58,958 bases of DNA, filler included, from Catajapyx aquilonaris (GCA_000934665.2; 2 parts of 2 records of this genome joined end to end with filler, not necessarily neighbours in it); one strand, 5' to 3'. Positions 27,717 through 58,958 are shown, counted from the first letter of the whole stretch. The notes: generated by a model from the letters alone, not told the origin. Made by a program: numbers and translations.

Positions 27717-29471
27717 TCACACCTACAAAAGAAATGGAAAGTAGCGGTATTGTAAGTGCCACTTGGTGTTCCAATAAGTTGAATTACCTTACCACTTCTA
27801 GTGCACCTATATTTATTACTTAATTTAGTTAGTTTTCAATGACAAAATAAAACAGCCACAGATTCCCATGATGTAGCCAAACCTGAGCCAAACTGTCATT
27901 TGTTTTTACTTTTTTAGCTGTGAAGCTCATAATGGTGATTGTGGATGTCTCACTTTAGCTAACAACTGCTTTGTTGTGGTATCAGAATTCTAATTCAGAT
28001 TGAGCTCTATTTTAGTGCCTTTTTAAACGAGCATTTTGTTACTAAAATGATATAAGAACTCACTACAAATTTTCTACATTATAAAAGAAATATGCAACTA
28101 ATATCAGATGTAGCAACTATTTCTAAAATGGCCAATAACTCCCGTACAGTCCACTACACTTCCACGGAGACGACGGAGACACTTCCTTGAATTTCTCACT
28201 AGATGGTATCCTGTAAGTACAGGATGCCGGCTCCTTTCTTCCACGTGCTTCATCAGTTCTACTTCCAGCTGGACCACGGCAGCACGATCTCTCAAGCTGC
28301 CCTCTGCCCGCAGGGTACAACAGTATCATCTTCCTGAAGACTGTTATGTTCGACACCAACCGCCAGGGGCCCCTTGGCGAGGATGCTGCTCTGTAGTGGT
28401 TGGTAATTGAACTGTATGAGGTATTTGGCAGTGTTGGGCGACGCAGTCTGGAATTTTCTGGATTCTTGGTCCTTCGGCCCTTCGGGTGTGTGGTACGGCA
28501 GCTTCCATTCGTTCTTCCACGCGGTTGACGAAGGGTGGCCAGGCCTAGGAGGAAGATCCTTGGCCCATGTCGGACGTGATTACTTCGGCAGAAGCGGACA
28601 CCGAAGGCCCTCAGCAGCACGTGAAAAAGTTCGTGTTTAGATCCAACGCTCGGCAAGTAGAGGAAGTCTTGGAGGTTGTTATACCAGAGGTATTACGATC
28701 CTGGTCCTAATGTTGTTTTGCTATTGGAATTTGAATTGTCAACATGGAGGGAGGGAGAGAGTGTGGTTAAGGAGTTGGTCACACATGTAGGGGAGTTGTC
28801 GCCTGCAACAAACCTATGTGACCACTGCCTCCAAGGGTTACACATTTCCTATAAATTTGAAGGAGAGACACTGCTTTTGTGCAACGTTCATGCCACATTC
28901 ATCTTGGGCCCTGGCAACAAATGAAAACACGCCTTGAAACAAATCATGTGCCATCACAGGAGACTTGCAAGAAATCTTAAGATGGGACAGTCACACCCCT
29001 CATCAAACAAATCATGGGGCTTGGGAGCTAAGAAGAATGGGGTCTAAGTATTGCAGGAAAATAGCTCTACTTTCAGGAGGTATTTTCCTGTAAGCAGTTG
29101 CAAGCAAATGAAGACAATATTGGTCACGTAGGTGACTTTGTTGCATGTGTGACCAGAGTTTTTCTCCGTGTTCTTCAAAATGGGGTGGCTTCCACTCAGA
29201 TTTGTTGTTAGTAGTCACAGAGGTAATTATGCAGGAGCGATGAACAACATATACAGGAAATGTGTGTTTTACTAGGACAAACACTACCTTGACACTTGAC
29301 ACTATTTGGAGTAAAGGAGGCCGCTTTTTGGGGAGAAAAAACCAACTGGAAGTGGGATTTGCAGCTGGTTTTGAGATTGCTCTCCCATTCCACTGCTCCA
29401 GGGCTGCATGCCGGATCGAGACCTGGCAACTTGGTGTGTGGTCCTGGAGCAGTGGAATGGGAGAGCAATCT

Positions 29472-29571
29472 NNNNNNNNNNNNNNNNNNNNNNNNNNNNN
29501 NNNNNNNNNNNNNNNTTAATTAATTAANNNNNNNNNNNNNNNNNNNNNNNNNNNNNNNNNNNNNNNNNNNN
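29472..29571. other. Artificial scaffolding linker N44-TTAATTAATTAA-N44
   Basis: Exactly 100 nt, with a central palindromic 12-mer that has stops in all six frames. Confidence 0.95.
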
Positions 29572-30267
29572 ATTGCTCCAAGAGCAAGTCACACGTGGGG
29601 AATTCTCATGGGCTGGTTGGTCATGTTGTTTCCTCTGCATCTGTATCAATTCCTGTCTGCAGCTCTGATGTTCCAAGGTTGTTGAGAGGTCCTGGACCTT
29701 TCTTTTTTATTTTAATCCAAAGAAATGTTCCATGGAGCCGTCTAACACCTGCATTAATCTCATGAGGGTCTAAAGTATTTCATTTCCATGCAGTCTGCTG
29801 AAATGACTCCACGTGGATTATTCTCAGGGTAAGGAAATGGAAAATATTAGTAAAAAATTTTTACTGTGGGGTTTTAAAAATATTTCCTCTACAGTCCATT
29901 GTAGATTGGGGAGGTGAAATCGCTGGTACTGTCCCTATGTCCATATCTGGTTGAAAAAATTCGGCAAGTCCATACCACCATGGCTGCCGTACTGGTGCCA
30001 CACCTGCTGACCCACTTGCGGGCCAGCACATACCGCCCAAGTTGGGATCTGAGGTTCTTAATTTTTGTTTGATATTGGCAGGTGAGGTGTTAACATACAC
30101 CCGATAAACAGATAACCCCCATGGTTGTGTTGTATGCATCAATAACTCCTGGCCTAGGTACAGTCGCCCAAGGAAGTATCTTTACACCTCGAAAATCCCA
30201 CTCATCCTGTAGGGTATGAGACACACCATAAAATCAGTGTGAAATTTTAACAGCACTTGTGAGCGGT

Positions 30268-33062
30268 GCCAGATGTTGGGGGGTGGGGAGGGGATTGGGA
30301 AGCTGGGGGAGGTGAAAAAAAGTACAGATAAAACCCGCGACTTGGGTGTATTGGAGGCATGTGGCATTGACCTTCCAACCCTGGGCATGCAACATGATAA
30401 GACTCTGGCCTAAGGAAGATAACTCATTTTGGGGCTATATTGATAAAATGTGCATTTCCCCCTCATGCACTTGAGTCGGAAGGCAAGGCAATAATTCTGG
30501 CAATGTAGCCACGTTAGTGGTGGTGACAGTTGCCTTAGATTACAGATCAATAGGACATAATGAATTGTGCAGTTGTAAGGAAATGTCAGCTGTCAATCAC
30601 CAGTCCTATTCCCTAGCATAATTGCAAGCATAAATAACGCAACATTTACGCTCGCAAACATCTTAAATCGACAACTTAAGATAACTGAAGAGCAGATATC
30701 ACACTGCAGGTCTGCAGCACAAATATTGCAAATTGTATTCACATGGAATGGAAAAGTCCAAATGATTAGCGGAAAATGTGAATAAAAGTTATCTGCCTAT
30801 TGCTTTCGATGGGAGCTCCATTAATTATGGCCGTTTGGTGATGAGTAGGCTAAAGTCTTGAAAAAAAAAAAAAACACATCACAAATGATGTAAAATGACC
30901 TCCTGTTCATTGTAAATTTACCTATCCCCCCCCATGCAATTTATGTTAAAAAGAAGAAGAAAACAGGAAGTCAGTCCCCCTCCCAACTAATTTTAAGGCT
31001 TGGTTTATATTATTTTTAAAAAATAGTGAAGGGAAAGCGACAACAACGGTATGCAAATAAGTCATGGTTTATTAATGACTAGTCCAATGACCATCCAGAT
31101 CAATGCATTATTATAGACGTTTTGGCATGGATCGGACTGGGTTTGCACAAAAAATGCCAAAACGACTACAAAAATGCATTGATCTGGATGGTCATTGGAC
31201 TGGTCATTAATAAACCATTTTGCATACCGGTACCGTTGTTGTCGCTTTCCCTTCACTATTTTAAAAATAATAATATAAACCAAACCCTTAAAATTAGATG
31301 GGAGGGGGACTGACTTCCTGTTTTCTTCTTCTTTTTAACATAAATTGCATGGGGGGATAGGTAAATTTACAATGAACAGGAGGTCATTTTACATCATTTG
31401 TGACGTGTTTTTGTTTTCAAGACTTTAGCCTACTCATCACCAAATGGCCATAATTAATGGAGCACCCATCGAAAGAAACAGGCAGCTAACTTTTATTCAC
31501 ATTTTCCGCTAATCATTTGGACTTCTCCATTCCATGCGAATACAATTTGCAATATTTGTGCTGCAGTGTGACATTTGCTCTTCAGTTATCTTAAGTTGTC
31601 GATTTAAGATGTTTGTGAGCATAAATGTTGCGTTATTTATGCTTGCAATTATGCTAGGGCATAGGACTGGTGATTGACAGCTGACATTTCCTTACAACTG
31701 CACAATTGAATGGCCCTCTGGAACAAAGGCCCAAGTCCAGTCCAAGAAATGGGTGGGAACGAAGGAAATATTTTTTTCCTGGGCATGGCAATGAGCCCTA
31801 GGCATTTGACTTCGTGAAACAGGTCCGTAAAGGCCACCCGAATATATGGTGAGATTCCCGCAGCGATACAACAATCAGGGGAACCGTATTTTGCAATTTA
31901 CTGATTTGGACTTGGGCTTTTGTTCCGTGGGGAATGATGGACTTGGGCTCACGTGGATTGCTGAAAACGAATTCTGTTCAGTGGCTGCTAATATTAAACT
32001 CAGTTTGCGCGATGAAGCAACATTATGCCGTACCAATATTGCTTTCACAGGGTCAAATATGCGTACTGTGCATGCCTATGGCACTCCCAAATGACCATTC
32101 GACGACAGTTGATATTCTTTCTTGCTGCATACTCGTGTTGCACTGGTGGACATGTCATTCCTTTGGGGTCAGTCAGACACCAAGAGGGGTATACTGGCCG
32201 AGGCCGTCTTCAGTTGAACTCCAGGATGCGACTCTGCCTGACGTCCAAATGACGCGTGCTGGGTGTTGATTAGCCTTGCCTGCTTGCCCAGCATAAGTCA
32301 TTTGGACGTCAGGCAGAGTCGCATCCTGGAGTTCAACTGAAGAATGACATGCCCACCAGTGCAACACGAGTATGCAGCAAGAAAGAATATCAACTGTTGT
32401 CGAATGGTCGTTTGGGAGTACCATATAGGCATGTACAGTACGCATATTTGACCCTGTGAAAGCAATATTGGTACGGCATAATGTTGCTTCATCGCGCAAA
32501 CTGTGTTTAATATTAGCAGCCACTGAATTCGTTTTCAGCAATCCACGTTCCTATGGAACAAAAGCCCAAGTCCAAATCAAAATACGGTTCCCCTGATTGT
32601 TGTATCGCTGCGGGAATCTCACCATATATTCGGGTGGCCTTTACTGACCTGTTTCACGAAGTCAAATGCCTAGGGCTCATTGCCATGCCCAGGAAAAAAA
32701 TATTTCCTTCGTTCCCACCCATTTCTTGGACTGCACTTGGGCTTTTGTTCCAGAGGGCCATTCAATTCATTATGTCCTATTAATCAGTAATCTAAGGCAA
32801 CTGTCACCACCACTAACGTGGCTACATTGCCAGAATTATTGCCTTGCCTTCGGACTCATGTGCGTGAGGGGGAAATGCACATTTTATCAATATAGCTCCA
32901 AAATGAGTGATCTTCCTTTGGCCAGAGTCTTATCAGGTTGCATGCCCGGGGTTGGAAGGTTAATGCCACCTGCCTCCAATACACCCAAGTCGCAGGTCTT
33001 ATCTGTACTTGTTTTTCACCTCCCCCAGCTTCCCAATCCCCTCCCCACCCCGTACATCTGGC
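30268..33062. repeat. Large foldback element (outer palindrome) with a second foldback nested in its left arm
   Basis: 30268-30566 pairs with 32763-33062, and 31704-32253 pairs with 32298-32767. Confidence 0.9.
30567..31703. mobile_element. 1137-bp foldback transposon with an AATT TSD (Sola1-type target)
   Basis: AATT-GTGCAGTTGTAAGG...CCTTACAACTGCAC-AATT with arms of about 560 bp. The uninserted site ATGAATTGAATGGCC is visible in the opposite arm of the host. Confidence 0.8.
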
Positions 33063-33576
33063 CAGGTAATGAACAGACAAAACTGCAATTTTTTAAGGAT
33101 GTCCTCCATATTGTTTGCAACAACTTAATGCATTGTGGGATTTGTGATATCAATCCATCTCTTAATGGTAAATAATTGAAAGTACACATTCTAGTGTCAC
33201 AATAGAAGACCTGATAAGCTAATGTTGTTAAGCGACATTTCTCAAACTTTTCAGGGGAGCAGAATGAAAAAATCGTTTTCGTCAGGTTTACAAACATTCG
33301 CAAACAAACATACCAGTATGTGATGGAGAAATACATCGGGAATGCTCTCCTGACAATGAAAAGTTATTTGGGCCCCATGTCAAAGGTCACGGGACAATAT
33401 ATTGGCTTGCACACAACAACATTAGATATGAAGCACAACAAAAGTTGTGAAGTGCCCATCACCTCCGCATACAAAATCATGCACCTTTGACACTGCTGCA
33501 TCAATCAGCCACCAAATCCATCACGTAACCCCAGTAGGTGCCATTCAACGTCCACAGGGTTTTCGGTGTCTGCATC

Positions 33577-34340
33577 ATCGCAAGAAAGGTGCCTCAGGTT
33601 TTGTTGCACAAGGAGCATCATGGTTATCTTTCAGTTCTGCCTCACATTGTATGCAGAAGTCGCACACATCACATTTTGGTCTGCGGAAGGCATACTCACA
33701 TTTCTCTCTGAAATAGCGGTGATATGTGGCATAAGACATTTTTAGAAGTAACCCAGTCTGCTCGAAATAATATTGGCGAAAGAGTCTGTGTAATCCCTTG
33801 GTGCAGAGGCTTGGGTTGCTCTTGTTGCGGGAGTAATGTGATGGTTGGCTTGGGATGAGAGCCAAATGATCTTGCAGCGTTTTCCACACACACTGCTGAA
33901 TTTTATGTGGACGGTTCTTGTGTGACCACCTCTTCTCTTGCATGGCAACATTGCGTGTCATAAATGTGATAGTATTTTAGTAAAAACAATGCAATCATAT
34001 CTGCCTCTACATGTTATTTAGGGACTGAGTTGGTTATCCTCACATACCTGCCTTCACATTCTCTAGGATTATCCTAATCCTTTTTGGTGTTACGCTCAAT
34101 ACTTGCAACAGAAACTTCTGGTACACCTCTGTTTTGCTGTGGCTGGACATACTCGTATGCAAAGTATTTCCATGTGCACTGTCGATTTTTTGTTTTTACT
34201 GCAGAGTGAGGACGGGCAATAGTACCTCGTTCTAGACATGCCAACAGGAAAGTGTCCTGTTGCTGTTTGTTGCCCATATTCCAGAAGTGCTCAAAAAACG
34301 AATCTTGTTCCGCTATGATGACCTGTGAGAAATGACAAGA
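33577..34340 (-). pseudogene. Sola1-like transposase, N-terminal fragment
   Basis: FWNMGNKQQQDTFL, VCQKFLL, SHYSR and FRRPKCDVCDFC motifs, with frameshifts. Confidence 0.7.
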
Positions 34341-34545
34341 CATTTTATAGCCCTACACGTAAAAAAAGGTAGACTACTTCCATTATTGGTGTGACAATAT
34401 TCAGGTTAGGTTTTGTTGGTAAAATACAGAGTTGTAGGCGGACACTACTGTTACAGGTGCACACATTGGCAGACCATATAATGGAACCAGCCAGTCTCCA
34501 CGTGTGTTCATCCAGACATAGCTTATTACCTTCTTGTAGCACTGC

Positions 34546-35124
34546 CTAGTCCAGCATGAAGTTGTTCGTGTCCACTCCTTGGCAGGAACAAGCAGACCAG
34601 CATATTAAGTAGTATAGCTCTGTCCTCTTTTCATCTGCCCACAACTTCTTATGCACTGTTCTCTTGTACAATAAGCTGTCATTTTCTCTCAGCAGAAAAG
34701 GCACCAGTCTTATGGCTGTTACAAGTTCATTGGTGGGGGGTTGCGCGGCAATTTTCTGGTGCTCCTCCAAAATTAATGCCATATTGACTGGTACCTTCTT
34801 AATTTGTTTTGCAATTTCAATAATTTTGTGTGCACATTCACCAAGTGACTGACAGAATACTAAGCTTATTTCAGTGCCCACGAGCAAGCGGAACTCTTGC
34901 ACAATTCCGTCTGCTGTAAATAGCAATGGAAAGGTCGCCCTGATATCGGACATTGACTTACCATTTAGTATTTGTGCTCGCCTATCAGGAAAACATTGCC
35001 TCATTTTTTGCAACACGGACTGATTTTCTCGCTCTGATGTGGGCTTTTTGCTCTCTTTTTGCTGTGAGTTTTTTCTCTTCTTTTCCCCGGGCGGCTCCGC
35101 GATTGGCAGGATCTGGTCCAGCAC
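34546..35124 (-). pseudogene. CACTA/EnSpm-associated accessory ORF fragment (SAMD3-like C-terminal domain)
   Basis: RRAQILNGKSMSDIRATFPLLF...QEFRLL pattern. Confidence 0.45.
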
Positions 35125-35979
35125 TGGGTTGATAGGGGCCTGTTTTGGCCCTTGCTTAGTAGTTGACCCTCCTTTCTTGATTTTGGAAGGTCCTGGTCTT
35201 AGGGCTGTTGGCTAGGTTTTTATCCTTTTTGTGGGGTCAAGGATGAGGGACTGATATGAAGATTTTGAGTTTTTCTTCAATGGACGTTTTAATTTGTTTA
35301 ATAAGGGTACGGAGACTTTGATGGTCGTTTTTTTGGAGGTTTGTTCAAAATTAAATAAACCCGGGGTACGCCGAATCAGATCAATTAAAGAATACTACAG
35401 TTCATTTCAATGTCTCTATTTGTCCTCATCACAGCTGACAACCAAACGCAGCACCTGACATGACACGTTTCACCCTACAGGGCTCGTCAGAGGTGCATGA
35501 CTGTAACATTGAAAGCTGGTCCCTCTGCTGCTTTTAAAACGGATGGAGGTTCCGCTGACACTGCTGCTCCTTGATCAGATCCTGATCGTGGCGGTGTTCC
35601 TGGTACTGCGTCATCAGGTTGCAGTGTGACTGGGATTTCAACTGCTTTGGTTCGAGTGTTGCCTATATATGCTGTGTATAGGTCTGCCAAAGCCTTTTTG
35701 CGAGTTATAGCGCGAAGGATGCGTTCTCGCACTTTCTTCCCTGCTCTCCTTCTTCTCTTCTGGAGCAGGGATGGATGGGAGAATGGGGGATGGTTGGTAG
35801 GGTCCATTGGGTCTGGTGTTGTTTATGTAATGCGGTTTTAAGAATTGGAGGTAGGCTTAAGATGTGTCTTAGCCGCTTTGGTTTGGAGATATAGGGGTGG
35901 TGTGGTTTCTCAGGTTGGGTAATGGGTGTTTTTGGTGTGGTTTTGAGGGTGGGTGTGGGGATTGTGACATGGGGGAGGA

Positions 35980-36260
35980 GAGGTGGGGTGTGATCTTGTT
36001 CTGGAGGAAATTGTGATGTTGGGTAATATTTCCTGAGACGATCTCGATGAACCAGCTGGGTTTTTCCGTTGTCAATTTTCACAATTTGGAAAAGGACTGG
36101 TCCTCGTCTCTGCATTACTCTGTGTGGTCCATCCCATAGACTGAAAAATTTCTGGCTTAGGCCTACTGGAGTCTGGGGTCTGTGTAGTAGGACCAAATCA
36201 CCCTGTTTTATGTGTTTAGGGCGAGGTTTCCTGTCGTCTTGCTCACCTTGCATTATCAAA
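35980..36260 (-). pseudogene. Ty3/Gypsy integrase C-terminal (GPY/F) fragment
   Basis: GDLVLL...KFFSLWDGPHRV...VHRDRLRKY. Confidence 0.8.
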
Positions 36261-37322
36261 GTGTGGAAATCATCTGTATAATGATTGCTTTTTTCTGGCC
36301 AGTTGCACTCCAGACTTTCAGTAGCTGGGGCGCCATACCACCTGTGACAGGAAATCAAAACATCAAATTTAAGAATGAGAGTGATACCGTGGAAGTCCAA
36401 AAATAGTCCTACAGCCATAAAAATGTCTAGTACAAATTCCGCTTATTACTTATTACTGCATATAAGTGGAGCGACAGGGTCAGATATTATTGGTAACTGT
36501 CAGCCAGCCGGAGGAGAATATTATTCTCCAAACTTGTAACTGCATATTACAGGCAGATGCTGTTCTTAAATGTGTGTTATGACCATCTTCATAAAATACA
36601 TTGTGAAGGATATTGGCCAAAGCTAAAGTCTCATTAAAAATGAAAATTGCTTCATCTGTCAAGAGTACACTCCAACCCTATTCAGTTACTGACATAATTT
36701 TCCAGGAGTAACACACGGACATTCACACGTTTATGTTGGCGCGTTTTTGCCAACCAAATTCATATGGCGCTTCCTAAGGCTGTTATTTTGTTCCAGCAAA
36801 AATACTGCGGCCTTCCTCTTTCGAAAAATGCCCTGATTTGTGAGAGTTGATAAATATTTGGTGTCGATGGACGCGGTTGAAGTTTGGCAACACACTGACG
36901 CACAGAAACGACCTTTCTGCGTAACTCAATATCAGCTTGAAAATCCTGTCAACTTGGAAAAGTTATACCTGTTGTCCTTACACAATGTGACAGAGCAGTC
37001 TCTCGTGATTCCATTTCAGCTAAAGTAATCCGAAGGTATCTTTTCATTACCGCATGGACGTACGGTTGTCCGTAACAATGCTGGGTAACACACGGACAGT
37101 TGCGAATTCTTGTACATTTGTGAGGTCTCCCGATTAAAAACATGCTTATTTGGAGTCAATGGAAATAGCTTTATTAATTGTTTACATGACAGATTCACAA
37201 TATGAATCACATGTCACAAATTATATGACTGTGTGTACATGTACTTAATATGTGAACACAACATACACGAAATCACCCTTGGGAGTTGGGACAAGAAATA
37301 AATTACTAGGATGTACGGAAGC

Positions 37323-38116
37323 TCACTCTTTCTTGGTGAGACTCACCACATGGAATACATTACCCTCCCCACATGACTCCTGTGCAACTTGCACGGCATA
37401 GCCACTGCACGGAACAATGCAGTGAAATCTACTGGTACCAGGAACTCTTTTCACTTCCGCCCAGAGTTCTTCCAGGTCACTTTTCCATTTCATAATGTCC
37501 TCATTTGAAGCAAATATGACATCCACATTTGGGCAGGCAGTTTTGGCGACATCTGCAAAGTCTTTTGCTGTCAGAACAATAGCTTGGCGGGAGTTGACTC
37601 TACGCCATACAACCCCTTTAATAGTTCCGCCTACCCCGTCAACTACACCCTTTCCATGGCTAGATGCAAAATAATTCCACCTCAGTTTCACTCCACGCAT
37701 TTGTTCCAAGACATATCAGTTCAGACATCAGGAACCTCGATTTAAACTGGGATGCTGCACCATCCGAAAATATATCAATGCGGTGCACTTTAGTCTCCTC
37801 ACACACATTTTCTATCAAAATGGACAAAAAGTGGAAGACACTGACTTTGTCGTGATCCAAATTGTCAGATCCTGTTGCCCTAATCTGCAGTGAGCCACGC
37901 GTACGCTGTGAAAACAGTACACTGATTGTGTCTCCAGTACGCACTCTGCACTTCGTCTTGCAGCTTAAAGTTATAGTTTTGGGAAAAGTCCACCTGAAGG
38001 ACTATGGTATTCCCGTCGACTGCCTTTGTTCTGGCCATAAATGCCTTGTGCTGCATACGTTTCACATGTGTGTGCACTTTAAATTCTGGAACCTGCTTTT
38101 TCATTTCTGCAATTGA
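37323..38116 (-). pseudogene. Sola2-like transposase catalytic fragment
   Basis: VDFSQNY...QDEVQSAYW, SDNLDHD, FSDGAASQFKS and SHGKGVVDGVGG, with frameshifts. Confidence 0.75.
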
Positions 38117-38129
38117 AGGTGTGACCTGA

Positions 38130-38464
38130 GCGGTTAGGATCACACGGAGAATAAGACGTGGCGGTTCGGTTCAAGTACAGTTTATTTGCCAGTTCGAAGT
38201 GTTGCGAGAAGGAAAGCAGGTTCAGGAAGGATCGGTGGGTAACCGATCTGGGTGCGACCAGTTGCCAAGGTATTCCCCAGACAAAGGGCCTCGAGAGCAG
38301 CACAGTACTCTCCTAATATACTCTCGTCCCAGTGCGTGATGGGGAGGTTGCATGGGATAGTCACATGGGAAGCCAAGGTGGTTGATGGGGAGATATAAGC
38401 AAAAGAATATCACGTGACCATTGGTATTGCCATAGTAGAGCGGACAGAATAAAGTGGGGCTACA
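38130..38464 (-). mobile_element. Possible solo LTR
   Basis: The minus strand begins TGTAGCCCC and has AATAAA near its 3' end. Non-coding. Confidence 0.35.
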
Positions 38465-39149
38465 TCAGTAAAGTGACGGTGGGCGACAAATGGTAGTGAA
38501 ATACTAAGGTCACACATCCCCACGCAAAGCACCTTCCCCCTCTCGACAAATGAAAAGCTCCTCTGAGAATGAAAACAGACAGTGAAAACAGAGGAGTCCG
38601 TGGTGGAGAGTTACAAAATGCATGGATCATGGTTGGTCGTACGAACGCGACAAAAGTCGCAACACAAAACACATCAAGAATTTTCTTGAGAATACTTAGT
38701 TCGTATGACAGAGGTTGGGGACGGCCCATTTCTTCGGCCGTTGGCACAAAACGTAAAGTTATACAAAAACAATATATCCGGGCAAAGGTATAGACACAAC
38801 AGGTGGACGTCGATAATCGGTGGTCGTCCAAACACTCACTGCACATTGGGCGTCTTCCCTTTTCCGTCTCACATGCATTCCAAGGCTTCCGGTTGTCGAC
38901 TAGTTCCGACGAGCAGTGTTTCCGTCCGAGCTGATCGCGATGACTCCCCCGGGTGGGTCGGTGTCCGATTGGGCATGGTACAGCACATCAGATGATGAAC
39001 CGCCACCTCCTCGGGTTGTTGGACGTCCGTCAAAAAGGCCAACGTAACGGGGTGTATGCCCCCTCCGACGACGGCGCTGACGGGGTGTGTCCCTCAGGGC
39101 CACGACGAGCGGGGGCGTCAACACAAACGGCAGGATGGGAGTTCCGAAA

Positions 39150-39415: not shown

Positions 39416-39419
39416 GGAG

Positions 39420-43240: not shown

Positions 43241-43242
43241 AT

Positions 43243-46760: not shown

Positions 46761-46764
46761 GTCT

Positions 46765-48481
46765 GGATTAAATAGTCTGTATTTAACGAAATGCATCAAA
46801 GGTCTAAGAACAAACAGCAGTATATCATTAACCCTACAAGTAATAGACTTCATGCCCTGTATTATGGGTCGCATTGTGAGTTCTGACACATCCTTTTTAA
46901 TTTTATGCAATTTAGGCATAGTATACAACAGTGGTACCACATATTTCTGTCCATATGGATTTTCCTCCTTATCATACAGCACGTGTTTCTTACTTAAAAA
47001 CGTCTCCACATCCCTATTCCGTTTAAGCAGAGGTTTAATTTCGGGTAATATTTTAATCATGTCACCATGAATTCTTTCGAGTGTATTTTCAAACCACTCT
47101 TTGCATCCTAAAATATGTCCCATTCTAATATATGACCCAGAATAATAGTTTTTTCAATATACAGTTCCGAATCCATAATGGTTAGGCCGGGTTAGGCCCA
47201 CGTTTTTATCACCCATTTTAATAACGATTTCGTTTCCATTAAATTTCTCTAACCATCCCTCAGCCTCAATTTGAGCCTTGGGTTTTAGCAAGGGGCACCC
47301 TCGTAGGGCAGCATTTACCCATAATTGTTGCTTAATTTGGCCCATAATTTGTCGTTCAGGGTACTTAGGAGGAAATTTATCATATCCTCCGACCTTCTCA
47401 TTGAATAATTTATTTTTTTTACCCCCCTGGATATTTCCACGTGATTCAGGTTTCTGCTCACTTTGTCTGACAGCGTCTGCAACCCAATGATGCTCCAGAT
47501 GATTTAAGCAAGTGTTCAATTGTTCATAATTCACATAATTATGGTCAATATGTTTAACTCTTCTCTCCAAGTATTGCATAACTGTCGTAGGTATAAATAC
47601 GCTCGACAGATTTGTACTTGAAAAGTTTGCTAATGCAATATTCCTTTTCGGATGCAATTCCAGAGTTTCATTGGTATTCATGAGGTTGTCATAAATTTCC
47701 ATAATGTTTTTAATACCCAACAAATTACATAGTGTTAAATTTTGGTGTGAAATCATTTCAGCACCTGCCATTATCGTTTTATTTTCCAACTTTGGCCACT
47801 TTATCAGTTTTTTTGGGCCAGCCCATCCATATCTACAAGGCTGTATTCCTGCCATTTATTCAGAGAATGCACTTTATTTCCAGCTTTGAAAAATTTGTTA
47901 AACCCATTATCCCAACATAATTGCATCAAATGATCTACATCCCTTTTCCTGGGAACAGGTATATTGGCAACTCCACATTCCTGAATCAAGTGATTAAGTT
48001 TTCGATCCCTCTCTTGGCACAACAATTTTAATTTTTCCCCTGGCAACAGTTTTTCATCAACCCTCGACATAAGTCCATATCCTAGTTGTAAAGGATCCAG
48101 TTGTTTAAAAAATTGACCCAGTAATCTCTCACGTTTGTCACTTGCTGACTGAGACTGTCTTCCATCATCCCCTGCATCATCAACGTCCTCAGCCTCAGTC
48201 ACTGCTCCAGTGTTTCCATGGACCCTCGTCCCGGCTGCCATCTGTCCTGCTCCAGAAGCTTGAGTTGCGCCAGCTGTTCGTTGCACATCATCCATTGCGG
48301 GAATGGCCTCCACGACTTCCATCAGCTGACTGTCCACATTTAATGGATCTTCAAACTGTCCTGCCACTGAAGGAGCACCAGGTGCGTTGATACCGGAGTT
48401 GTCTCCACCCTCATTGTATTGGCCTCTCCCACCTCTCATTCCTCTTGGCATCGCCCTCCCTCTCCCTCCAGGTGATGTCAT
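46765..48481 (-). mobile_element. Penelope-like (Athena/Terminon-like) element copy 1: ORF1 (48481-47804), -1 frameshift, RT N-terminal half
   Basis: RGG-rich ORF1; IVIKMGDKNVG, LYTMPKLHK and MRPII PLE RT motifs; slippery site at 47807-47813. Confidence 0.8.
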
Positions 48482-49004
48482 CTGTCTCAGTAAGGATAGG
48501 TCTGGGATCTTTGTTCGAGTACAGGTTGTAATGGTGGATTACTGATGTTTTGAGGGTGAAGGGGTACTTGGTTGCCAGTAAACTGGACATTAGGTGGTGG
48601 TGGATTGTTTCCAAGTTGGGGATATTGATTAGGTGGGTTACTGGCAGGGCGGGGGCCTTGAGGATTATACTGGGGGTAGTTGGTTGCTCGATTGGTTTGG
48701 TCAGTCCTCTGCCTTCCACTTCAATTCATTTTTCACTAATTAATGATTAATTAGTGCTAATTAATTAATTTTGGGAGATAAGGAGTTGAATGGGACGGGT
48801 TAGGAGAAAATCGGCAGGTTGGTTTGGACTTAAAAAATGTTTGAAGAATTCTTGGTTGGACATGGTTTTGGAGGGGGGTTGGGACAACTGTCCTCTTTAG
48901 ATTTTAAGGCTTAAGGTGCTGTTTTGGTAAAAGGTCTGTTTGTTGACGGTAGGGCTTGGTACGTTAAGGTAGGGTACGTCGCAGTATGGGGGGTCGGTTC
49001 TTTT

Positions 49005-49035
49005 GGTAGGTTAGGTTAGGTTGGGTGAGGATAGG
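49005..49035 (+). repeat. Short degenerate (TTAGG)n tract
   Basis: GGTAGG TTAGG TTAGG TTGGG TGAGG ATAGG. Confidence 0.55.
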
Positions 49036-49060
49036 AAAAGTAAGGTAATGAGGTTATGCG

Positions 49061-49465
49061 TTAGGTCCTGGAGCGACCGGGTGGGAGGCACGTATGAATA
49101 TTTTCGAAGTGTTCCTTCCTTGGCGAGGGATGTTTACCACCCCGACCGGCGGCCACCTGCTTCCTCGTTGGTGGACCTCCTCCGCCCATCGTCTGACGAT
49201 CTGCGTCTTCTCTGCGGTACCGATCAATCTCCTCACGGACCCGTGTTTGCCCTTCCCTAGGGAGGCGGGAAAAGAGCTCCTCTCTACTCTTCCTTGTGCG
49301 GGCAAGCAACTCCCTTCTTTGCTTATACAGAATGGTGGTCATCTCCACACTCGCCACCCGCACAAATGCGTCCAGCTCGTTCCAATCTGTATTTGGCAGC
49401 AGATCCAGATTCGGGACATAGTGGTCTGGATGCAGGTGCAGCGTATGCACCGGGTCCCCAGCCAT
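49061..49465 (-). CDS. Helical, charged ORF of unknown function, probably a PLE accessory or N-terminal domain
   Basis: 134-aa open frame with a coiled-coil-like stretch, lying between a TTAGG tract and an HHR. Confidence 0.35.
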   Translation of the reverse strand: MAGDPVHTLHLHPDHYVPNLDLLPNTDWNELDAFVRVASVEMTTILYKQRRELLARTRKSREELFSRLPREGQTRVREEIDRYRREDADRQTMGGGGPPTRKQVAAGRGGKHPSPRKEHFENIHTCLPPGRSRT

Positions 49466-49600
49466 GAGGCTCCTGACCTCATCGTCAGGTTAAGTTATTA
49501 AATAATGCCCAGGGCACGGCAGGATGAAGTAAAATAATCAAGGCATCATTTGCTCAGGCGATATATATATTGTCCAACAAATGCTTGCAGTTGTCCTCCT

Positions 49601-49655
49601 TATCTAGCACCTTACGCGTTTCACCCTATAAGGGCTCATCAGAGATGCTTGGTAT
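49601..49655 (-). ncRNA. Minimal type I hammerhead ribozyme (HHR-B)
   Basis: On -: agcatct-CTGATGA-gccct tat agggt-GAAA-cgc-GTA-aggtgct. 7-bp stem I and palindromic ACGCGT stem III. Confidence 0.85.
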
Positions 49656-49987
49656 ACTTTAAGTATGAGAGGCAGGACACTGCAAGCATGCTACAACTGC
49701 CGACATCTTTGAGCAAGGTTAGGTTAGAAATTAAAAACAAGCCGGTTGGCTACCAGGCAGGTCCCGAAGCAAGGCCCGATCACAGGGGCGTACGCCTTTC
49801 TTCCGCCGTGCCAAGGCGTAGCGGGCTTGTGTGTACCGGACCGGTCCCTCTACCAGTCCGGGCCAGAGGTAATAAGAGGAATATGTTTGCCGGAAAGAAT
49901 AGACGCTAAGGCCAGATATACAGTTTTATGAGAGTTTATTGGTATATTTCCAAACACTTTTCAATAACAGATTTCCACACTAGAATT

Positions 49988-50043
49988 GGCCGGGTTCCGA
50001 CCGGTTTCGCTCTTGGCGAAGATACTCTTCAGGGGAAATGGCT
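49988..50043 (-). ncRNA. Minimal type I hammerhead ribozyme (HHR-C)
   Basis: On -: ttccc-CTGAAGA-gtatctt cgcc aagagc-GAAA-ccg-GTC-ggaa. Palindromic ACCGGT stem III. Confidence 0.75.
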
Positions 50044-50427
50044 TGATGTGTGGTACATAATTTTGCGTTTTTAGTAATACATTATAAGTTCCCGTAAGGC
50101 CACCGCGTGCACTCGGTTTCTTAGCCAGACAGGGGGACTTGGTTTTTATCTGGATATAATTTGTCTAGGCTTCCTCCTCATGTTGGTGAAGAATGGCTGC
50201 TCTTTCTTGTTGATTGGATTTCTCTGGCTACTTCAATGGTCGGTGTGGGAGAGGGGGGTAAGGGTATGGTTTGTTTTTTAACAACCCACGGAGGGGCGTG
50301 TGCGAGGCTCGGTGGTAGGGGGATTAACGGTACAAGTCAACGGGATTGGGATTGTAAAGGAGCGGACCAGGACTGGCCCATTTCGGAGAAGGTTGCGGCG
50401 GGGACAAGGGGGCAAGGTGAGACTCAA

Positions 50428-50817
50428 TTATAGGGTTAGGAATGCCGGGGGAGCAGGGGAAACTTTGGCGGTCGTATCAGCGTTCACCCGGTGTTGTTGG
50501 TCCCTCAGTCTAATATTGGCTGTTTGTTGGATAGCTTGGCGCTGATTGATTTGGCGCTGGAATTCCTCCATCCTTTCTTCCTGGGCAAAGTGGGCCCGGG
50601 CCAGCCTGGCCTGGCTAGCATCCTTGGCGGCCTGACCCTCTCGATGTTGGCGTCCGGCCCGGCAGCCACGTCGTCGCGGCTTCTTCCTAGGTTTGGGGAC
50701 GTCAGGCCTGGCGGTCGGGAGCGGAACCATCCGAGGTGTAGCTGGCAGACTTCTAGGCAGGAGCAGGTGCAGCGCCAAGTGTGGTTGATTTAGGCCACCC
50801 AAGTTCAGAGAGCCCAA
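50428..50817 (-). CDS. Basic, Gln-rich ORF of unknown function within the PLE chain
   Basis: 129-aa ORF (RKKPRRRGCRAGR, coiled-coil-like), co-oriented between HHR-C and HHR-D. Confidence 0.3.
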   Translation of the reverse strand: MGSLNLGGLNQPHLALHLLLPRSLPATPRMVPLPTARPDVPKPRKKPRRRGCRAGRQHREGQAAKDASQARLARAHFAQEERMEEFQRQINQRQAIQQTANIRLRDQQHRVNADTTAKVSPAPPAFLTL

Positions 50818-51085
50818 GATGGAGCTCGAAGAACTAACTCTCAGCCTCAGGTGGAAATTGGAGCTCGGTTTTGGGTGGAAGGGGGACCTCGAGCCGCAAA
50901 GTGCAATGCGTCCGAGGAGCCGGCTGCCTCTATAAGGCGCCTTGCTTTGGAGCAGGAAATTTTCCGCTCTGGATCAGCAAGGATGGATGACCTTCGAACT
51001 GCTGAATGGCCCAGTTCTAGGTATGTAATGAAAATAATAACTTCGGGATGCGCCAGAAAATAGTAATTAATTTTCACCAAACATG

Positions 51086-51150
51086 CCCTGCAGCTTACAT
51101 TGCCCGACGGCCGTTTCGCCTAAAAGGCTCATCAGGGGCCAGCTACAGGG
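51086..51150 (-). ncRNA. Minimal type I hammerhead ribozyme (HHR-D)
   Basis: On -: ccctgtagct g gccc-CTGATGA-gcct ttt aggc-GAAA-cggcc-GTC-gggc...agctgcaggg. Palindromic ACGGCCGT stem III. Confidence 0.88.
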
Positions 51151-51683
51151 TAGTACATGACTGCAACGAGGGCATTAGTACACCAAGAGACATTGTGACG
51201 AGGTAGCCTAGATCATTTGGGCCAGTTCAAAAGTTTTTTGCCTGACTGACTGTACGTTCATATTCGTTCGGAGTCTGAAGGTCTCTGAACCAAGACACAC
51301 CATGAATCCTATCAGCTGTATTAAAACAAGGTGAATAGTAATCAAAAGTGTCTTCCAATGGCCTTATCGCATCCATTTTGGAAATATCAGTCATGTGGTT
51401 CCTTTCTGCTTCTGTAAAATTAGCGACCCACCATGCTAATAGTATAAAAATATTCATGTGGCAACACTGGTTGGATATTGGTCCTTTTCCTCCCGTGAGA
51501 TCGCTCGAACCATAGCCACAAGGGCGAATATACCCTTTCGCCCTTTTTTCTCCTGACGGTGGCTGGATATTCGCCCGATGCACGTCTCGTCAGCTCGTGT
51601 TCTGTGCGAGATACCGTTTCGCCACTTTGGCATGACACGCCACTTCACCTAAATGTACAACATGGGGATGGATAATCGCCATT

Positions 51684-53024
51684 TTGAATAGTCGATGAGT
51701 AACGAAACCGATAAGGGGTCTAAGAACATACTGAAGCGCATCGTTAACTCTTCCAGTGTTAGAGGCGAACCCTTGAATAATGGGCCGAACTGATAATTCC
51801 GATAGGCTAGTTTTAATCTTATGTAGTTTGGGCATAGAATAAAGAGCTGGTACTATGTATTTCTGATTATAGGGATTCCTCTCATTTTTAAATTTTATGT
51901 GGCGTTTGTTCAAAAATATCTCGATCAATTTAGGTTTTTGAGTTTAAACGCAACCTGGACCATTTCAGAATGATCTTTCTCGACTGTATCAGTGAACCAC
52001 TCTGTGGTGCCTATTAAGTGACCAATCCTCTTATAAGAGCCACAGTTGAGATGTTCAATCGTTTTGGTCGCATAACAAGCTTCAGTCCATAATTGTCAGG
52101 CCTGCATTTTTTGTCTGCCATCTTTATGACTATGTCGCTACCGTTAAATATACGCAGCCAGGCTTCTGCTTCTATTTGAGAGGTTGATTTCAACGGTGGA
52201 GGCTTCCTAAGACAAGCATGGGTATAAATTTCGAGGCGAATATGACTCTCATAATGTGTTTCTCCGGCATTGAGGTTGGAAACTTCAGATATCCGCTGGC
52301 TTTTACTGAAAATATATATATTTTTTTTTCGTCGTTCCATATGAACCTTTTTCCCGCTTCTCGAGCTGGGCAATGGTATCGCACTACCAGTGATGTTCCA
52401 GGTATGCATCTATTTGTTCCGAGTTGGTGAATTCCCTATCTACATGTTTAATCCCTCTCTCAAGGTATTTCATTACTACTTCAGGTACCACTAGACTGGA
52501 AATATTTGAGCTAGAAAACTGTGTAGTGAATATCCGCCAATTGGCTTGATCTTAAGTTCATTTTGCTCCCATAAATGACTCCAGGATACATTCAATGGTG
52601 GGGACCCCCAATAAGTTGCATAATTTTATATTAGCATTAGAGACAAGTTGCATACAAGTGACTGAGTCCTGCCCTGCAATCTTTGGCCATTCAATCAGTT
52701 TTTTCTCCCGATACTTGATGGTAATGCAAGCTTTCGGATACTGTCATAATCCCACTCGTAGAGTTTTTTAACTGTATGGTTTCGATGATTTAGTAGGAAG
52801 TGGTTTTTCCATCCGGCATTCCAACATCTTAATATGATCTCATCTATTGAGTTCTCGAGCCGGTAATTCAAGCCTGGCGACTTCCATTTCCTGTATAAAG
52901 TGACTGTTTTTTCTGTTTCGCTCGTCAATTATTACCGAGAATTTTTCAGACTGTAGATTACACTTCTTCATTTTCATACCCCAGCAGTTGGCTAGTGTAC
53001 ATATGGTCCATAAGAACTTGTCCT
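51684..53024 (-). mobile_element. Penelope-like element copy 2 (diverged, decayed): ORF1 C-terminus, -1 frameshift, RT N-terminal half
   Basis: Collinear peptide similarity to copy 1: KKLIEWPK, LCNLLG, QIEAEAWL..FNG.DIVIKMADK, NPYNQKYIVP.LYSMPKLHKIK and RPIIQG. Confidence 0.8.
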
Positions 53025-53343
53025 TTGTGGTGTGACCTGGTAGACCCACTAGGTTGTGACGAACCTGCATCTACTCACCTGGTCCGTCGCCCGGTGTCGC
53101 TCAGTCTGGGTCCTTCAATGATAACACACCATTTTGAATACACTACTTTATTGGCACCATCTTACATCTCATTCTCCCGTCTCCCTTCACCGTTGCCAGG
53201 CCTTCCGGCCCACGCCACATGGTTTTCACCGTTGCCATACTCTTGCCACGTTGCCATGCTCTTGCCACGTTGCCATGCCCCCAAACGTGGCAATTCCCCC
53301 CCCCCCCNNNNNNNNNNNNNNNNNNNNNNNNNNNNNNNNNNNC

Positions 53344-54870
53344 ACCGAAAACAATTTCCCGGCCGCGTTTATATATTGAGGGGGATTGGTTTTTGAGGTT
53401 GGCCATCAGCCTTGTGATAGGCAGTGGTAAACAAAAGGCCAAATACCAAGGCGGAGATGATTCCGGGACTAGGTCCCGATAATGAACATATCGGGTTGAG
53501 CGAGTTAGTGCCAGGTGACTAGCACTTAAAATACGTTCCTCATAAACTTGAATGCCCGCACTCAATGAGAGTTCCAGTAATTCCAAGTCATCACAGCCCA
53601 CTTCCGATAACTTTCGGTATACCCTACTGTACCAGTTCAGGCGTGGGGATGAACCTGCCGCCTGGTTTTTGGAGCTAAGGTATGCCAGTTTCTGGAGTCG
53701 GGAGGTAAGAAGGTTGGTCAGCTTTATTAGTTGTTTGCCTATCAATCTCAGGGCTCTTCCAGAAAGTGGTCTAATGCCTAGTTCCAGCCTTAGAAAATAA
53801 TTTGCCGTGTTGGATGGGAGCTGGAGAAACCTCTTCAAGAAATAATTTTGAACCTGATCAAAGATCTGTAAGTGCGCAATTCCCCAGACCTGGGCTCCGT
53901 ATAGAATTACGGGAGCAATTTGGGCGTCAAACAGCCTAAGTGCTACCTGAACGTCACGGACTTTCAGGCGTAGCATTGTATTCCACAGGCTATTGATTGC
54001 CACTTTGGCCTTCTTTTTAAGACATTCCGCCGCCAACGTAAAGTTTCCCGTAGAAAAAAAAACGGTATACCAGGATATGTATATGTGGAGGTTCAGTTAA
54101 GCGGCACAGTGTCCCAAAAGAAAGTACATTTAGGCCGGCAACCGGGCCTTTTAAAATACATCACATTTGTTTTCTTTAGGTTCAAACGCAGGCCATTCAA
54201 GAGAAAGTAATCCCTCGAACAATTTAAGTTTTTCTGAAGATAGGCTTGGCTGTTACATAACAAAATTATGTCATAAGCATAGGCTAAGGTGGTAAAGTCC
54301 GGAGTATTCGGCTCCAAATTTACTCCCGGCGAACCATTTTCGCCGATGTACCTTTCGAGGTCCGAGAGGAAGATGTTAAAAAGTACCGGGCTCAAAGGCT
54401 CACCTTGCGGCAAACCAACCGGGACCCGAATAACTACTTTCGGATCACAATCATCTACAATTCTGAATTTTCTATGATAATCTTGCAGCAACATCACAAA
54501 GCTCCGACTCATCCCCAAAGTTAATAGTTTCGAAAAAAGCAACTGGTGAGAGACCGAGTCAAGCGCTTTTGATAGGTCAATAAAGACGGCAAAAAGCCCC
54601 CCTCTTGGCTTCGATATATACCTTTGAACCAAACAGTTTAAAGAGGAGGTTGTCAACACACCCTCTTCCTGGGCGAAAAGCAGCCTGTGTGTCTGAGAAG
54701 ATTTCATGTTTATTAGCCCAACATAGTAATCGACCAGTGACTATAGAAGAAAAGCGTTTTACTACATTGTTCACCAGAGCGATGGGACGATAATTTCCTG
54801 GTTCCGTTGGGTCACCCGCTTTAAAGACTGGAGTAACCCTCGCACGGGCCCAAACACTGGGTATCTCATG
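53344..54870 (-). pseudogene. Non-LTR retrotransposon (LINE, RTEX/L2-like) RT fragment
   Basis: NYRPIAL, QAAFRPGRGCVD, FIDLSKALDSV, GLPQGEPLSPVLFN, LAYAYD and ILYGAQVWG. Confidence 0.85.
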
Positions 54871-55909: not shown

Positions 55910-56007
55910 GTGTACTATGGGCGCCAAAAGAATTGACCGGTTTTGATGGGTTTATGGCGCTATATACCCATCAACTCCGGTCAATTCTTTTGGCGCCCAT
56001 AGTACAC
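55910..56007. repeat. 98-nt near-perfect hairpin
   Basis: GTGTACTATGGGCGCCAAAAGAATTGACCGG pairs with CCGGTCAATTCTTTTGGCGCCCATAGTACAC. Confidence 0.85.
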
Positions 56008-56464: not shown

Positions 56465-57100
56465 TCACTGAGACTTAAACTTTATAAGTTTCTGCATATG
56501 TCGGGAGGACCTCTTCGTCGTAGCCCGCGACGTCAACTTTCCTTCATAGTGTAATTTCATTGCCACGAGGGCACGCAACATGTACAGCCGGTGATCACAA
56601 CAAGGAGTGTACTTAGCAAAATATGACGGATGACTCACCTCGGTTACTTTTTTGATGCTGTCAGTGGCCCCAAGAGAACTTTCATGCCTCTTTTTCGGAT
56701 AGATAAAGTGATACGCCTGCAATTGCTTTGTCACAACTGAAACGAGCATGTCACTGGGTGCCACCAGATTCCCAAAGTCTGGAGTCTGATCTTTTGACGG
56801 CGTACGCCAGGAAGAATATCAATAGCTGTTCATCCCTCTGAATAGTTTTATTTTGGTGGACCACTGTTGAATGGCAGTCGTGGCACAAAGGAAAGTTTTT
56901 AAAGCACTTTTGTGCCAAGTACACTGCGACGTACTCTATGCTGCTCGTTTCCAGTCCAGTCATATTCAGTGAATCACTGCTTTCTGCCACCTCCCTCAGC
57001 TCTCTGTGTAGACCTATGTCCTCATCCTCTTCCAGGATCATCTCTTCATATGATGATCTGGGACTGCAAGGCGAGAGTTGATGGGGTGTCGTACTGCAAT
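56465..57100 (-). pseudogene. P-element/THAP9-like transposase C-terminal fragment
   Basis: IEYVAVYLAQK...CHDC, GNLVAPSD and CCDH. Confidence 0.6.
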
Positions 57101-57856
57101 TATTATTATTGCAATTAAGAATTATTAACAGTTAGCATATGCAAGTAAGTGATGGGAAGTAGGCCTATACCGCCGTGCCATCCCAGATCAATATTAGGAT
57201 CCGGCCACATACCTGGTGTGGCTTGACAGAGGGTGGCCCGAATCAGGATCTTGGTGAGTCAAGAGCATCTCGTCGTCGCTTGGCTCACAGTTGGCTGATT
57301 CAGGAGGCTGCAGCATGCGAACGCACATTGCATGTTGCAATGCACAACGGAACTGGCGGGCCGATAAACAAAGTTTCCAGGGGATCCTGATATAGTCTGG
57401 ATGTCAGGAGAAACTTCATCCCCTTATTTTTCTAATCCCTCCATAGACTCAACGTGGAAGACAGAGTTATGAGTAGGCCGTCGAAGCAGTCCGGGTTGCC
57501 TGAGTCACTTGTTAATACCCACGATGCAGGGAACGGCAAAGGGGACTTTTGGCCAATGAGTTATTGGTGCGGTACAGCGTGTATGAAATGCACCTGTTGA
57601 GCTTACCTTGTAGCTCATCAGCCGTCACGAATTCCTCCATGGGCACGTCGCATGAGTGAAGGGTTCCGTCCTCGATGAATACCAGGCAACAAGAACAATG
57701 CGTGATCATCTCCGCTGCTAGCTCACCGATACGACCACCGTCCGCTCACTGCTGCTAGTCCTCCCGCCACCCGCCCTCCCTCCGCCCGCTCCACCCATCT
57801 CTCCAAAATGTCTCTTCCACCTCCGAGAATCCCCATTATTGACTTTTCAGAATATA

Positions 57857-58690
57857 TTAATCAGGTCCGTGCAAATTACAATTGAGTTGTCGATATCTAC
57901 GTCTCTTCCTCCTCACCACAGGCAGGCTTTGTGCAAGCTGGTTTCGCAGAATCTTAGCAGCTTTGCATGCAGCTGGATCTTCCTCTCCATGATCTTCAAG
58001 ATACTCATCGGGGTCATGCAGGTCTTCCACGGCACCCTCATCAACGTCATCTGGGAGATCATATGAGCCACAAAGGTTGTGCAGGACACATGAAGCCATT
58101 GTAATCTTGCAGATTCTCTTTATGCAGCCAACTTCTACAAAATAAAGTCCGCGGAATCGCTGCTTAAGGAGGCCAAACGTGTGCTCGATTCGAACTCGCT
58201 GCGAACTGTGCTGATAGTTGTAATTCTTCTTCCATTCTGGAAGGCTCCCAGTGTCTCGGTATGGGGTGAGAAGGTATGAAGTGAGTGAGTAGGCGCCATC
58301 ACCAAGTAGATAGTATCCACCTGCAAGAAATTAAATTGTCAAAAATGCGCTTCTAGTCACCTGGGTTGTGGAACTGACCTTCGCGCTAAGTCCTGGAATA
58401 TCCTTACGAACGAAAGAGTTTTTGAACACCTTTGCGTCATATGTACGGCCCGGGTATCCAATGAACACATCTCGGAATCTCTTCTGATCATCGCATATTC
58501 CCTGCAGGATTATGGCATGGAATTTCTTCCTATTGTAATACGAGCTAGGTGACTCGGATGGTGTTCTGATGGGATGAAGCTCCCATCTATGGCTCCAACC
58601 ACTCTCGAGGCCTAATTCTGCAGGAAACCCCTCTGCTATTCGGGGCTTCTAATCTTTTGTTGGCAGCTTTATGACTTCTGCTGAAATGCT
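57857..58690 (-). pseudogene. PIF/Harbinger (HARBI1-like) transposase fragment with a retained intron
   Basis: VGAIDGS, YYNRKKFHAIILQGICD, GYPGRTYDAKVF, LLGDGAY, RVRIEHTFGLLKQRFR and CVLHNLC. Confidence 0.9.
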
Positions 58691-58700
58691 GTATGAATTC

Positions 58701-58820
58701 CTGTTTCGCTCGTCAATTATTACCGAGAATTTTTCAGACTAGATTACACTTCTTCTATTTCATACCCCAGCAGTTGGCAGTATTTAAAGGGTCTAAATTA
58801 GTGTACATATGGTCCATAAG
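58701..58820 (-). mobile_element. PLE ORF1 fragment (copy 3), near-identical to 52913-53014
   Basis: Direct nucleotide repeat. The consensus peptide aligns without gaps to ORF1 of copy 1. Confidence 0.75.
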
Positions 58821-58881
58821 GTTGGTTAGGTTAGGTTAGGTTAGGGTTAGGGTTAGGTTAGGGTTAGGTTAGGTTAGGTTA
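58821..58881 (+). repeat. Arthropod telomeric-type repeat (TTAGG)n with TTAGGG variants
   Basis: About 11 units read directly from the sequence. Confidence 0.9.
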
Positions 58882-58958
58882 CCGTCAATCAAGCCGGTTG
58901 ACCGGAATGAGAAAAACCAATGCGGGCCTGGGGGTGTAATCCCAGGCCTTAGAGTACA

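Follow-up and report, generated by a model that had tools for sequence, protein, structure and literature searches.

Does a one-sided array of transposon remnants behind a protein kinase gene mark a source of PIWI-interacting RNAs (piRNAs)? The question is raised by a 58,958-base stretch of the genome of Catajapyx aquilonaris (GCA_000934665.2; hereafter the window; G+C 37-50%, five short N runs), in which a MAP2K4-like kinase gene on the plus strand is followed, from ~10 kb downstream of its stop codon to past the window end, by fragments of transposable elements (TEs). The initial annotation of this DNA had proposed a flamenco-like uni-strand piRNA cluster. We found that the array, which lies behind MAP2K4, is single-copy and forms a graveyard of nested, truncated transposon genes, all with the minus strand as their sense strand. 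It displays the DNA-level hallmarks of a uni-strand cluster: many unrelated TE families, truncation and nesting, an extent of tens of kb, and complete polarity. Judged from its sequence, the array from ~35 kb to the window end is a candidate uni-strand piRNA source locus, a reading to which we assign a probability of roughly 0.45.

Transposon remnants on a single strand

Pfam was run over all stop-to-stop open reading frames (ORFs) of at least 50 aa between 28100 and 58958 (n=301; 156 plus, 145 minus), and additional fragments were sought by word-index search, phmmer, BLASTP, local tblastn and a language-model feature search of protein clusters. TE-type Pfam matches were carried by nine of the 145 minus ORFs and by none of the 156 plus ORFs (Fisher p=0.0012). 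With all searches taken together, 12 of 12 TE coding fragments that could be oriented (10 firm, two weak) were on the minus strand at 35.7-58.6 kb and none on the plus strand, with at least nine different domain or homology assignments among the 12 pieces within ~23 kb. The fragments, several of them from reverse transcriptase (RT) genes, are:

35708-36442, minus: integrase C-terminal fragment, long terminal repeat (LTR) retroelement type (Pfam Integrase_p58_C, E 2.5e-5, 24.7 bits, below the cut-off of 27)
37326-38001, minus: second, weak DUF7869-like fragment of transposase type (language-model features at 0.96-0.97 to clusters with DUF7869 in 16-17% of members)
38903-40177, minus: DUF7869 ORF, 425 aa, the longest of the window (Pfam E 3.7e-10, 40.1 bits against a cut-off of 26)
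42394-43284, minus: Tc1/mariner-type DDE transposase fragment (Pfam DDE_3, E 6.2e-10, profile positions 54-132 of 146)
43555-43996, minus: RT core fragment (tblastn with protein P0003, residues 175-325, E 4e-10 and 2e-4)
44799-45002, minus: weak DUF5641 fragment (Pfam E 1.6e-3, 19.1 bits, below the cut-off of 23.1)
45058-45829, minus: hAT transposase fragment (tblastn with protein P0002, residues 38-411)
46677-48538, minus: N-terminal part of an RT element with upstream ORFs (phmmer to P0003; tblastn at 46728-47255)
51593-52409, minus: paralogue of this RT element, same N-terminal part (tblastn with P0003, E 1e-9; direct DNA repeat, 68%)
53143-54870, minus: RT fragment of ~1.7 kb resembling long interspersed nuclear elements (LINEs) (Pfam RVT_1; a 317-aa ORF contiguous downstream)
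56754-57131, minus: P-element transposase C-terminal fragment (Pfam Tnp_P_element_C, E 1.7e-4, 22.6 bits, exactly at the cut-off)
57860-58648, minus: Harbinger/PIF-type DDE transposase fragment (Pfam DDE_Tnp_4, two ORFs)

The one-strand bias of the coding remnants claimed by the initial annotation was thus borne out. Its count of 18 oriented fragments was not reproduced, and its names Sola (three fragments), CACTA-associated, Sailor and hATm were not reproduced with the libraries used; its BEL/Pao assignment reappeared only weakly, through the match to DUF5641, which we take to be a domain of BEL/Pao-type integrase tails. The polarised part spans 35.4-58.65 kb, where the window end cuts it, and 28.1-35.4 kb yielded no coding piece that could be oriented.

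On the plus strand of 28.1-59 kb, no TE or host Pfam domain was found in 156 ORFs of at least 50 aa and 82 shorter ones; the short ORFs of 38-49 aa (n=147; 82 plus, 65 minus) had no Pfam match on either strand. Two marginal non-TE Pfam matches, PV_NSP1 (minus, E 0.0095) and DNA_pol_phi (plus, E 0.0036), were set aside as they look spurious. Six-frame Pfam searches of 43.2-44.4 and 45.6-46.8 kb with stops read as X gave no match on either strand, and the longest free-standing plus ORF (49052-49498) had no homologue in a word-index search, which is weak evidence.

ORF lengths were asymmetric as well. In the right part, ORFs of at least 200 aa numbered seven on the minus strand and none on the plus strand, and those of at least 150 aa numbered 13 and three respectively, compared with two and two in the left part; the left 28 kb is symmetric in ORF lengths between the strands. 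Since stop-triplet frequency is equal on both strands, this asymmetry is not compositional.

Such a pattern could in principle arise by chance, from few orientable insertions that happen to lie on one strand, some of them being the same insertion or old local duplicates. The pattern was selected after the fact; Pfam alone backs seven elements (the nine matched ORFs belong to seven), which would share a strand by chance with a two-sided probability of 2/128 (~0.016); a single element probably accounts for both the RT piece at 46.7-47.3 kb and that at 43.6-44.0 kb; and the two copies of the RT N-terminal part are paralogues arranged as direct repeats. However, after these two RT pieces are merged, 11 independent events (nine firm) of unrelated families are left, with a two-sided p of 0.001-0.004. 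The two RT copies do not represent a recent duplication, because they share only 63% identity in protein and 68% in DNA. Moreover, the ORF-length asymmetry and the polarity of the hammerhead-like cores described below agree independently. Chance is therefore an improbable explanation.

DNA transposases and the possibility of capture

At least five kinds of DNA transposon are represented in the array (DUF7869, DDE_3, hAT, P and Harbinger). The Harbinger-type piece consists of ORFs 57860-58330 (E 5.8e-15, profile 75-158) and 58334-58648 (E 2.8e-9, profile 7-67). The hAT piece was recognised through ORF 45327-45677 (minus), which led in the word-index search to the 583-aa protein P0002 (E 1.9e-11) with its Dimer_Tnp_hAT and DUF4371 domains. 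The piece at 37326-38001 matched the DUF7869 ORF around an 'IFSD' motif (BLASTP E 0.006); the name 'DUF7869' did not occur in the literature searched. The 38903-40177 frame stays open far past its DUF7869 part into an arginine-rich tail and, within single-copy contigs (4.3 kb), is unusually intact for a graveyard.

One-step or few-step capture (Helitron-like, Pack-type, or by RT template switching between TE mRNAs) would give the array a polarity that is inherited rather than selected. Fragments that are internal slices without termini of their own would suit such an origin, as would a 425-aa frame open past its DUF7869 part. Typical cDNA chimeras are far shorter than >23 kb, and the array, at >23 kb, lies far above that size. 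Furthermore, the Pfam scan of the 28.1-59 kb ORFs found no Helitron Rep/helicase or other carrier domain, the array is single-copy and hence not an amplified composite, and the apparent nested insertion in an RT element (below) points to serial insertions. We thus consider capture, too, to be improbable.

Reverse transcriptase fragments and nesting

ORF 46677-47153 (minus) had a single phmmer match among 1.8 billion proteins, P0003 (E 4.5e-8), which carries RVT_1; its word-index search among longer proteins was empty, and its cluster feature search returned unnamed eukaryotic clusters only. With P0003 as query, tblastn found 46728-47255 (residues 3-160), 51686-51943 (residues 81-152) and 43555-43996 (residues 175-325), all on the minus strand and none on the plus strand. 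Between the pieces at 46728-47255 and 43555-43996 lie 2.7 kb with the hAT and DUF5641 fragments, which are oriented in the same way as the two. Since they match consecutive parts of P0003 across this 2.7-kb gap, the two are probably one element split by a nested insertion. The ORFs at 51.6-52.4 kb matched those at 46.7-47.9 kb with 63% identity (BLASTP E 2e-36) and 48% (E 1e-16).

The three RT pieces that resemble P0003 are probably Penelope-like, on the basis of a motif in the 46677-48538 element that we take to be Penelope-like and of the nearby hammerhead-like cores. No GIY-YIG match was found by Pfam in window ORFs, and the relative P0003 carries RVT_1 only. The LINE-like fragment rests on RVT_1 matches in ORFs 54096-54740 (E 2e-18, profile 39-193 of 205) and 54580-54870 (E 7e-6, profile 5-55).

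Among the LTR-type genes, no Pfam match to env, gag or protease was obtained among the ORFs of 28.1-59 kb. A PDB search with minus ORFs 47157-47855, 53347-54096, 43993-44433 and 34549-35211 gave no match for any of them, and no family was found for the long minus ORFs 28126-28692, 33578-33976, 34549-35211, 38463-38987, 40855-41370, 49064-49489 and 50431-50973.

Hammerhead-like cores of the same polarity

The array also contains four motifs resembling the hammerhead core, all on the minus strand:

35434-35508, minus: hammerhead-like core (CUGACGAG, hairpin, UGAAA), motif at 35468-35490 (Rfam HH9, 21.5 bits, E 0.24, gathering threshold 52)
40912-40935, minus: hammerhead-like core with a stem II hairpin (motif only; no Rfam listing; not folding as a hammerhead)
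49613-49651, minus: hammerhead-like core, motif at 49619 (Rfam Hammerhead_3, 20.7 bits, E 2.3; minimum free energy (MFE) fold with stems I and II)
51100-51141, minus: type I hammerhead-like motif, the best of the four, motif at 51114 (RF00163 Hammerhead_1, 28.9 bits against a gathering threshold of 34, E 0.0012-0.0049)

The window contained 12 occurrences of the pattern CUGANGA...GAAA where 5.55 were expected; a count of 12 was reached in three of 100 shuffles. All eight matches to this core pattern in the right part were on the minus strand; four had a clear stem II hairpin, and three of these shared a common upstream sequence. Stem I pairing was seen by eye in three of the four cores, and the MFE structure had the hammerhead layout in one and partially in another; z-scores were not significant, as the folds of the four motifs were no more stable than those of shuffles. 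Moreover, Rfam at its gathering thresholds gave no match in the window. Thus, of the four minus-strand hammerheads proposed initially, the cores and their strand stand, while none reaches an Rfam gathering score and none is a validated ribozyme.

Penelope-like elements carry minimal type I hammerhead ribozymes (RF00163). The arrangement here is similar in that RT fragments adjoin CUGANGA...GAAA cores whose stem II is short and whose stem III region is palindromic; it differs in that the best core scores 28.9 against the RF00163 gathering threshold of 34 and in that no GIY-YIG domain was found.

Inverted repeats, copy number and the reality of the junctions

Repeats, both inverted and direct, were located by self-blastn, and contigs from four DNA runs, three from one sample and the fourth from a second, were aligned to 29572-45866. 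The left flank of the array holds an element of a different nature:

30268-33062, no strand assigned: composite foldback element of 2.8 kb, with 300-bp terminal inverted repeats (TIRs; 94%) around two abutting ~1.1-kb palindromes (30563-31707 and 31704-32767)

This element is high-copy, with a contig depth of 300-560 against ~21-37 around it and a k-mer depth 10-20 times the single-copy level. Its palindrome places the same peptide in ORFs of both strands. Further palindromes lie at 29374-29471 and 55910-56007, and inverted repeats are absent between 33.1 and 55.9 kb, as fits truncated fragments without termini. The description of the whole region as slices without TIRs therefore applies to 33.1-55.9 kb, and fails for 28.1-33.1 kb, which is palindromic, TIR-bounded, high-copy foldback DNA, and for 55910-56007, which is an inverted repeat too.

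Long, perfect hairpins typical of miniature inverted-repeat transposable elements (MITEs) at 6176-6308, 29375-29470, 31079-31203 and 55917-56000 gave structure-only matches, scoring far under gathering on both strands, to unrelated plant and animal miRNA precursor models. In the contigs of all three runs from the one sample, 30206 is linked to 31000 by a single G, with a depth near that of one haplotype; the 793 bases left out are apparently a repeat present in one allele and absent from the other. Two shorter indel alleles, of 177 and 147 bases, were seen at 35336-35514 and 35774-35922 respectively.

Could the fragment junctions be assembly chimeras that do not exist in the animal? N runs interrupt the region at 29472-29571, 45867-45895 and 53308-53342, within or near the array, and the DNA runs may be the assembly's own source and hence not independent of it. 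However, within the part compared, separately built contigs of the three runs agreed at >=99% over 1.2, 4.3, 1.2 and 1.1 kb, and the array from 33.4 to 45.9 kb had an even single-copy depth of ~21-37 at k=31 in the one sample. In particular, a 4.3-kb contig (36108-40389, two differences) takes in the integrase tail together with both the DUF7869-like piece and the DUF7869 ORF, and the second sample's run, from another study, contains five identical short pieces at 33.2-37.1 kb. On these contigs, which were compared over 29572-45866, a chimera is highly improbable.

MAP2K4 and a possible plus-strand transcribed region

Two features upstream of the array bear on the direction in which it might be transcribed:

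14842-23406, plus: MAP2K4-like kinase gene (Pkinase exons by Pfam at 14842-15045, 18679-19062, 19126-19464 and 20680-20961)
25900-27846, plus: ten AATAAA hexamers, the first after the kinase stop codon, ~2.5 kb past the stop and crowded into 2 kb

The last Pkinase exon (20680-20961) had human MKK4 (3aln) as its best PDB match (E 9e-30), ahead of MKK6 (E 5e-17), and the last coding exon, which is C-terminal by motif and translation, ends in a stop codon at ~23404-23406. The AATAAA zone is, from its sequence, likely where the kinase mRNA has its 3' end. Inside the array, the plus strand lacks AATAAA over 11.3 kb (40501-51838). Scarcity of AATAAA on the plus strand (10 against 20 on the minus strand) was considered as a signal in its own right and discarded, as it is accounted for by base composition (A<T); plus-strand T exceeds A across much of 40-54 kb.

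The strongest competing explanation, albeit an unlikely one, is that the array is an ordinary region transcribed from the plus strand (a 3' extension or read-through of MAP2K4, or an intron of an unseen gene) from which sense insertions were purged because of their polyadenylation, promoter and splice signals. It accords with the position of MAP2K4, a plus-strand gene ending at ~23.4 kb, so that the TE sense strands are antisense to its direction, and the window ends within the array, leaving a downstream exon possible. On the other hand, to judge from the ten AATAAA hexamers at 25.9-27.8 kb, the array lies beyond the end of the kinase mRNA, and no plus-strand Pfam domain was found in 28.1-59 kb. 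Intronic antisense bias of TEs is moderate, and weak for DNA transposons, compared with 12 of 12 here. Furthermore, the MAP2K4 introns contain no coding TE debris; their repeats are foldback MITE-like ones and copies of a 600-bp family that point in both directions. Chance, capture and misassembly are less likely than this explanation.

Among the ORFs of the left 28 kb (n=227), Pfam matched no TE family. The 600-bp family (84-87% identity) has three copies in or after MAP2K4, at 8605-9213, 15076-15675 and 24559-25137; two are oriented one way and one the other, unlike the polarised right part. The last kinase intron holds a 219-base tandem duplication (21971-22409, 99.5% identity).

A candidate uni-strand piRNA source

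On the preferred reading, the array is a uni-strand piRNA source whose plus strand would give rise to a long precursor. This precursor would start either at a promoter of its own at ~24-35 kb or by read-through from the co-oriented MAP2K4, and would be processed into piRNAs antisense to the TE families of the array. Insertions in the opposite orientation would be lost, as they would yield sense piRNAs only and would burden the precursor with sense-strand signals for termination and splicing. Such a plus-strand precursor would share the orientation of MAP2K4 upstream, which is only suggestive of the transcribed strand. We infer the transcription of the array, its direction and any small RNAs made from it from the DNA.

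Known piRNA loci resemble the array in part. In the passages of van Lopik et al. (2023, PMC10643416) that describe them, flam-like loci were found by their antisense bias, are defined by antisense enrichment of Gypsy/ERV elements and capture ERV remnants, and their strand bias is driven exclusively by Gypsy-family elements. The array and flamenco or flam-like loci, as portrayed there, have in common tens of kb of truncated one-orientation TE remnants next to a protein-coding gene; they differ in that here at most two of the 12 pieces are of LTR type (both weak or sub-threshold), no env was seen, and DNA transposases, probably Penelope-like RT and LINE-like RT dominate. Because the flam-like bias is Gypsy-borne and the array consists mainly of DNA transposases and non-LTR or probably Penelope-like RT, the array is not flamenco-like in content. 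Of the initial proposal of a flamenco-like uni-strand cluster, the packing of truncated one-orientation fragments therefore survives, at a level stronger than chance, and the composition does not.

A further parallel is offered by Trichoplusia ni, another arthropod, for which the relevant sections of Fu et al. (2018, PMC5844692) give 286 of 348 piRNA loci as uni-strand, with 57.1% of insertions and 79.7% of TE nucleotides antisense. Those clusters contain mixed TE classes, oriented by preference against the direction of transcription, and are transcribed from one strand; they differ from the array in the degree of polarity (57.1% antisense versus 12 of 12 on one strand) and in being defined by small RNAs, the array being defined by DNA alone. 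A review (PMC11726155), in its remarks on the subject, describes data outside insects as scarce.

The traffic jam gene of Drosophila is a genic 3'-UTR (untranslated region) piRNA source, whose precursor continues from the gene's 3' end on its own strand. It illustrates a possible way in which the array could be fed from MAP2K4, although traffic jam is a short UTR source without a TE archive, and the array starts ~10 kb past the stop codon, beyond the AATAAA group.

Several points weigh against a uni-strand piRNA source: i) the locus is known from its DNA, which does not fix the transcribed strand; ii) the window was picked for its pattern, and p values of 0.004-0.001 (9-11 events) or 0.016 (seven Pfam elements) are not negligible over hundreds of windows; iii) orientation can be assigned only to coding remnants, which make up ~10.6 kb of 25.9 kb; iv) complete polarity is not specifically predicted, given that the uni-strand clusters of T. 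ni are only 57% antisense in the figures of PMC5844692 cited above; v) single-copy depth at k=31 over 33.4-45.9 kb implies that the fragments there had no near-identical multi-copy relatives in that individual, so that the locus, if it works, would store old or rare families and would not match abundant active ones.

Implications for TE silencing outside the usual insect models

A broader and doubtful extension is that the array belongs to a genome-wide set of fully polarised TE archives, composed, in contrast to flamenco, mainly of DNA transposons and Penelope-like elements and transcribed either by extension of a co-oriented housekeeping gene (here MAP2K4) or from a promoter immediately after it, which would constitute a uni-strand piRNA system directed against cut-and-paste transposons. 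Were this so, selection on orientation would be much stronger than in Lepidoptera.

If small RNAs were absent from the array, it would serve as a negative control, indicating that polarised TE graveyards alone are not diagnostic of piRNA clusters. If small RNAs confirm it, the array would be a clean, uniquely mappable uni-strand cluster outside the usual insect models, and it would open the questions of how a complete bias is upheld, whether uni-strand clusters police DNA transposons and Penelope-like elements in the way that flamenco polices Gypsy retroviruses, and whether transcription of such a locus can come from a housekeeping neighbour.

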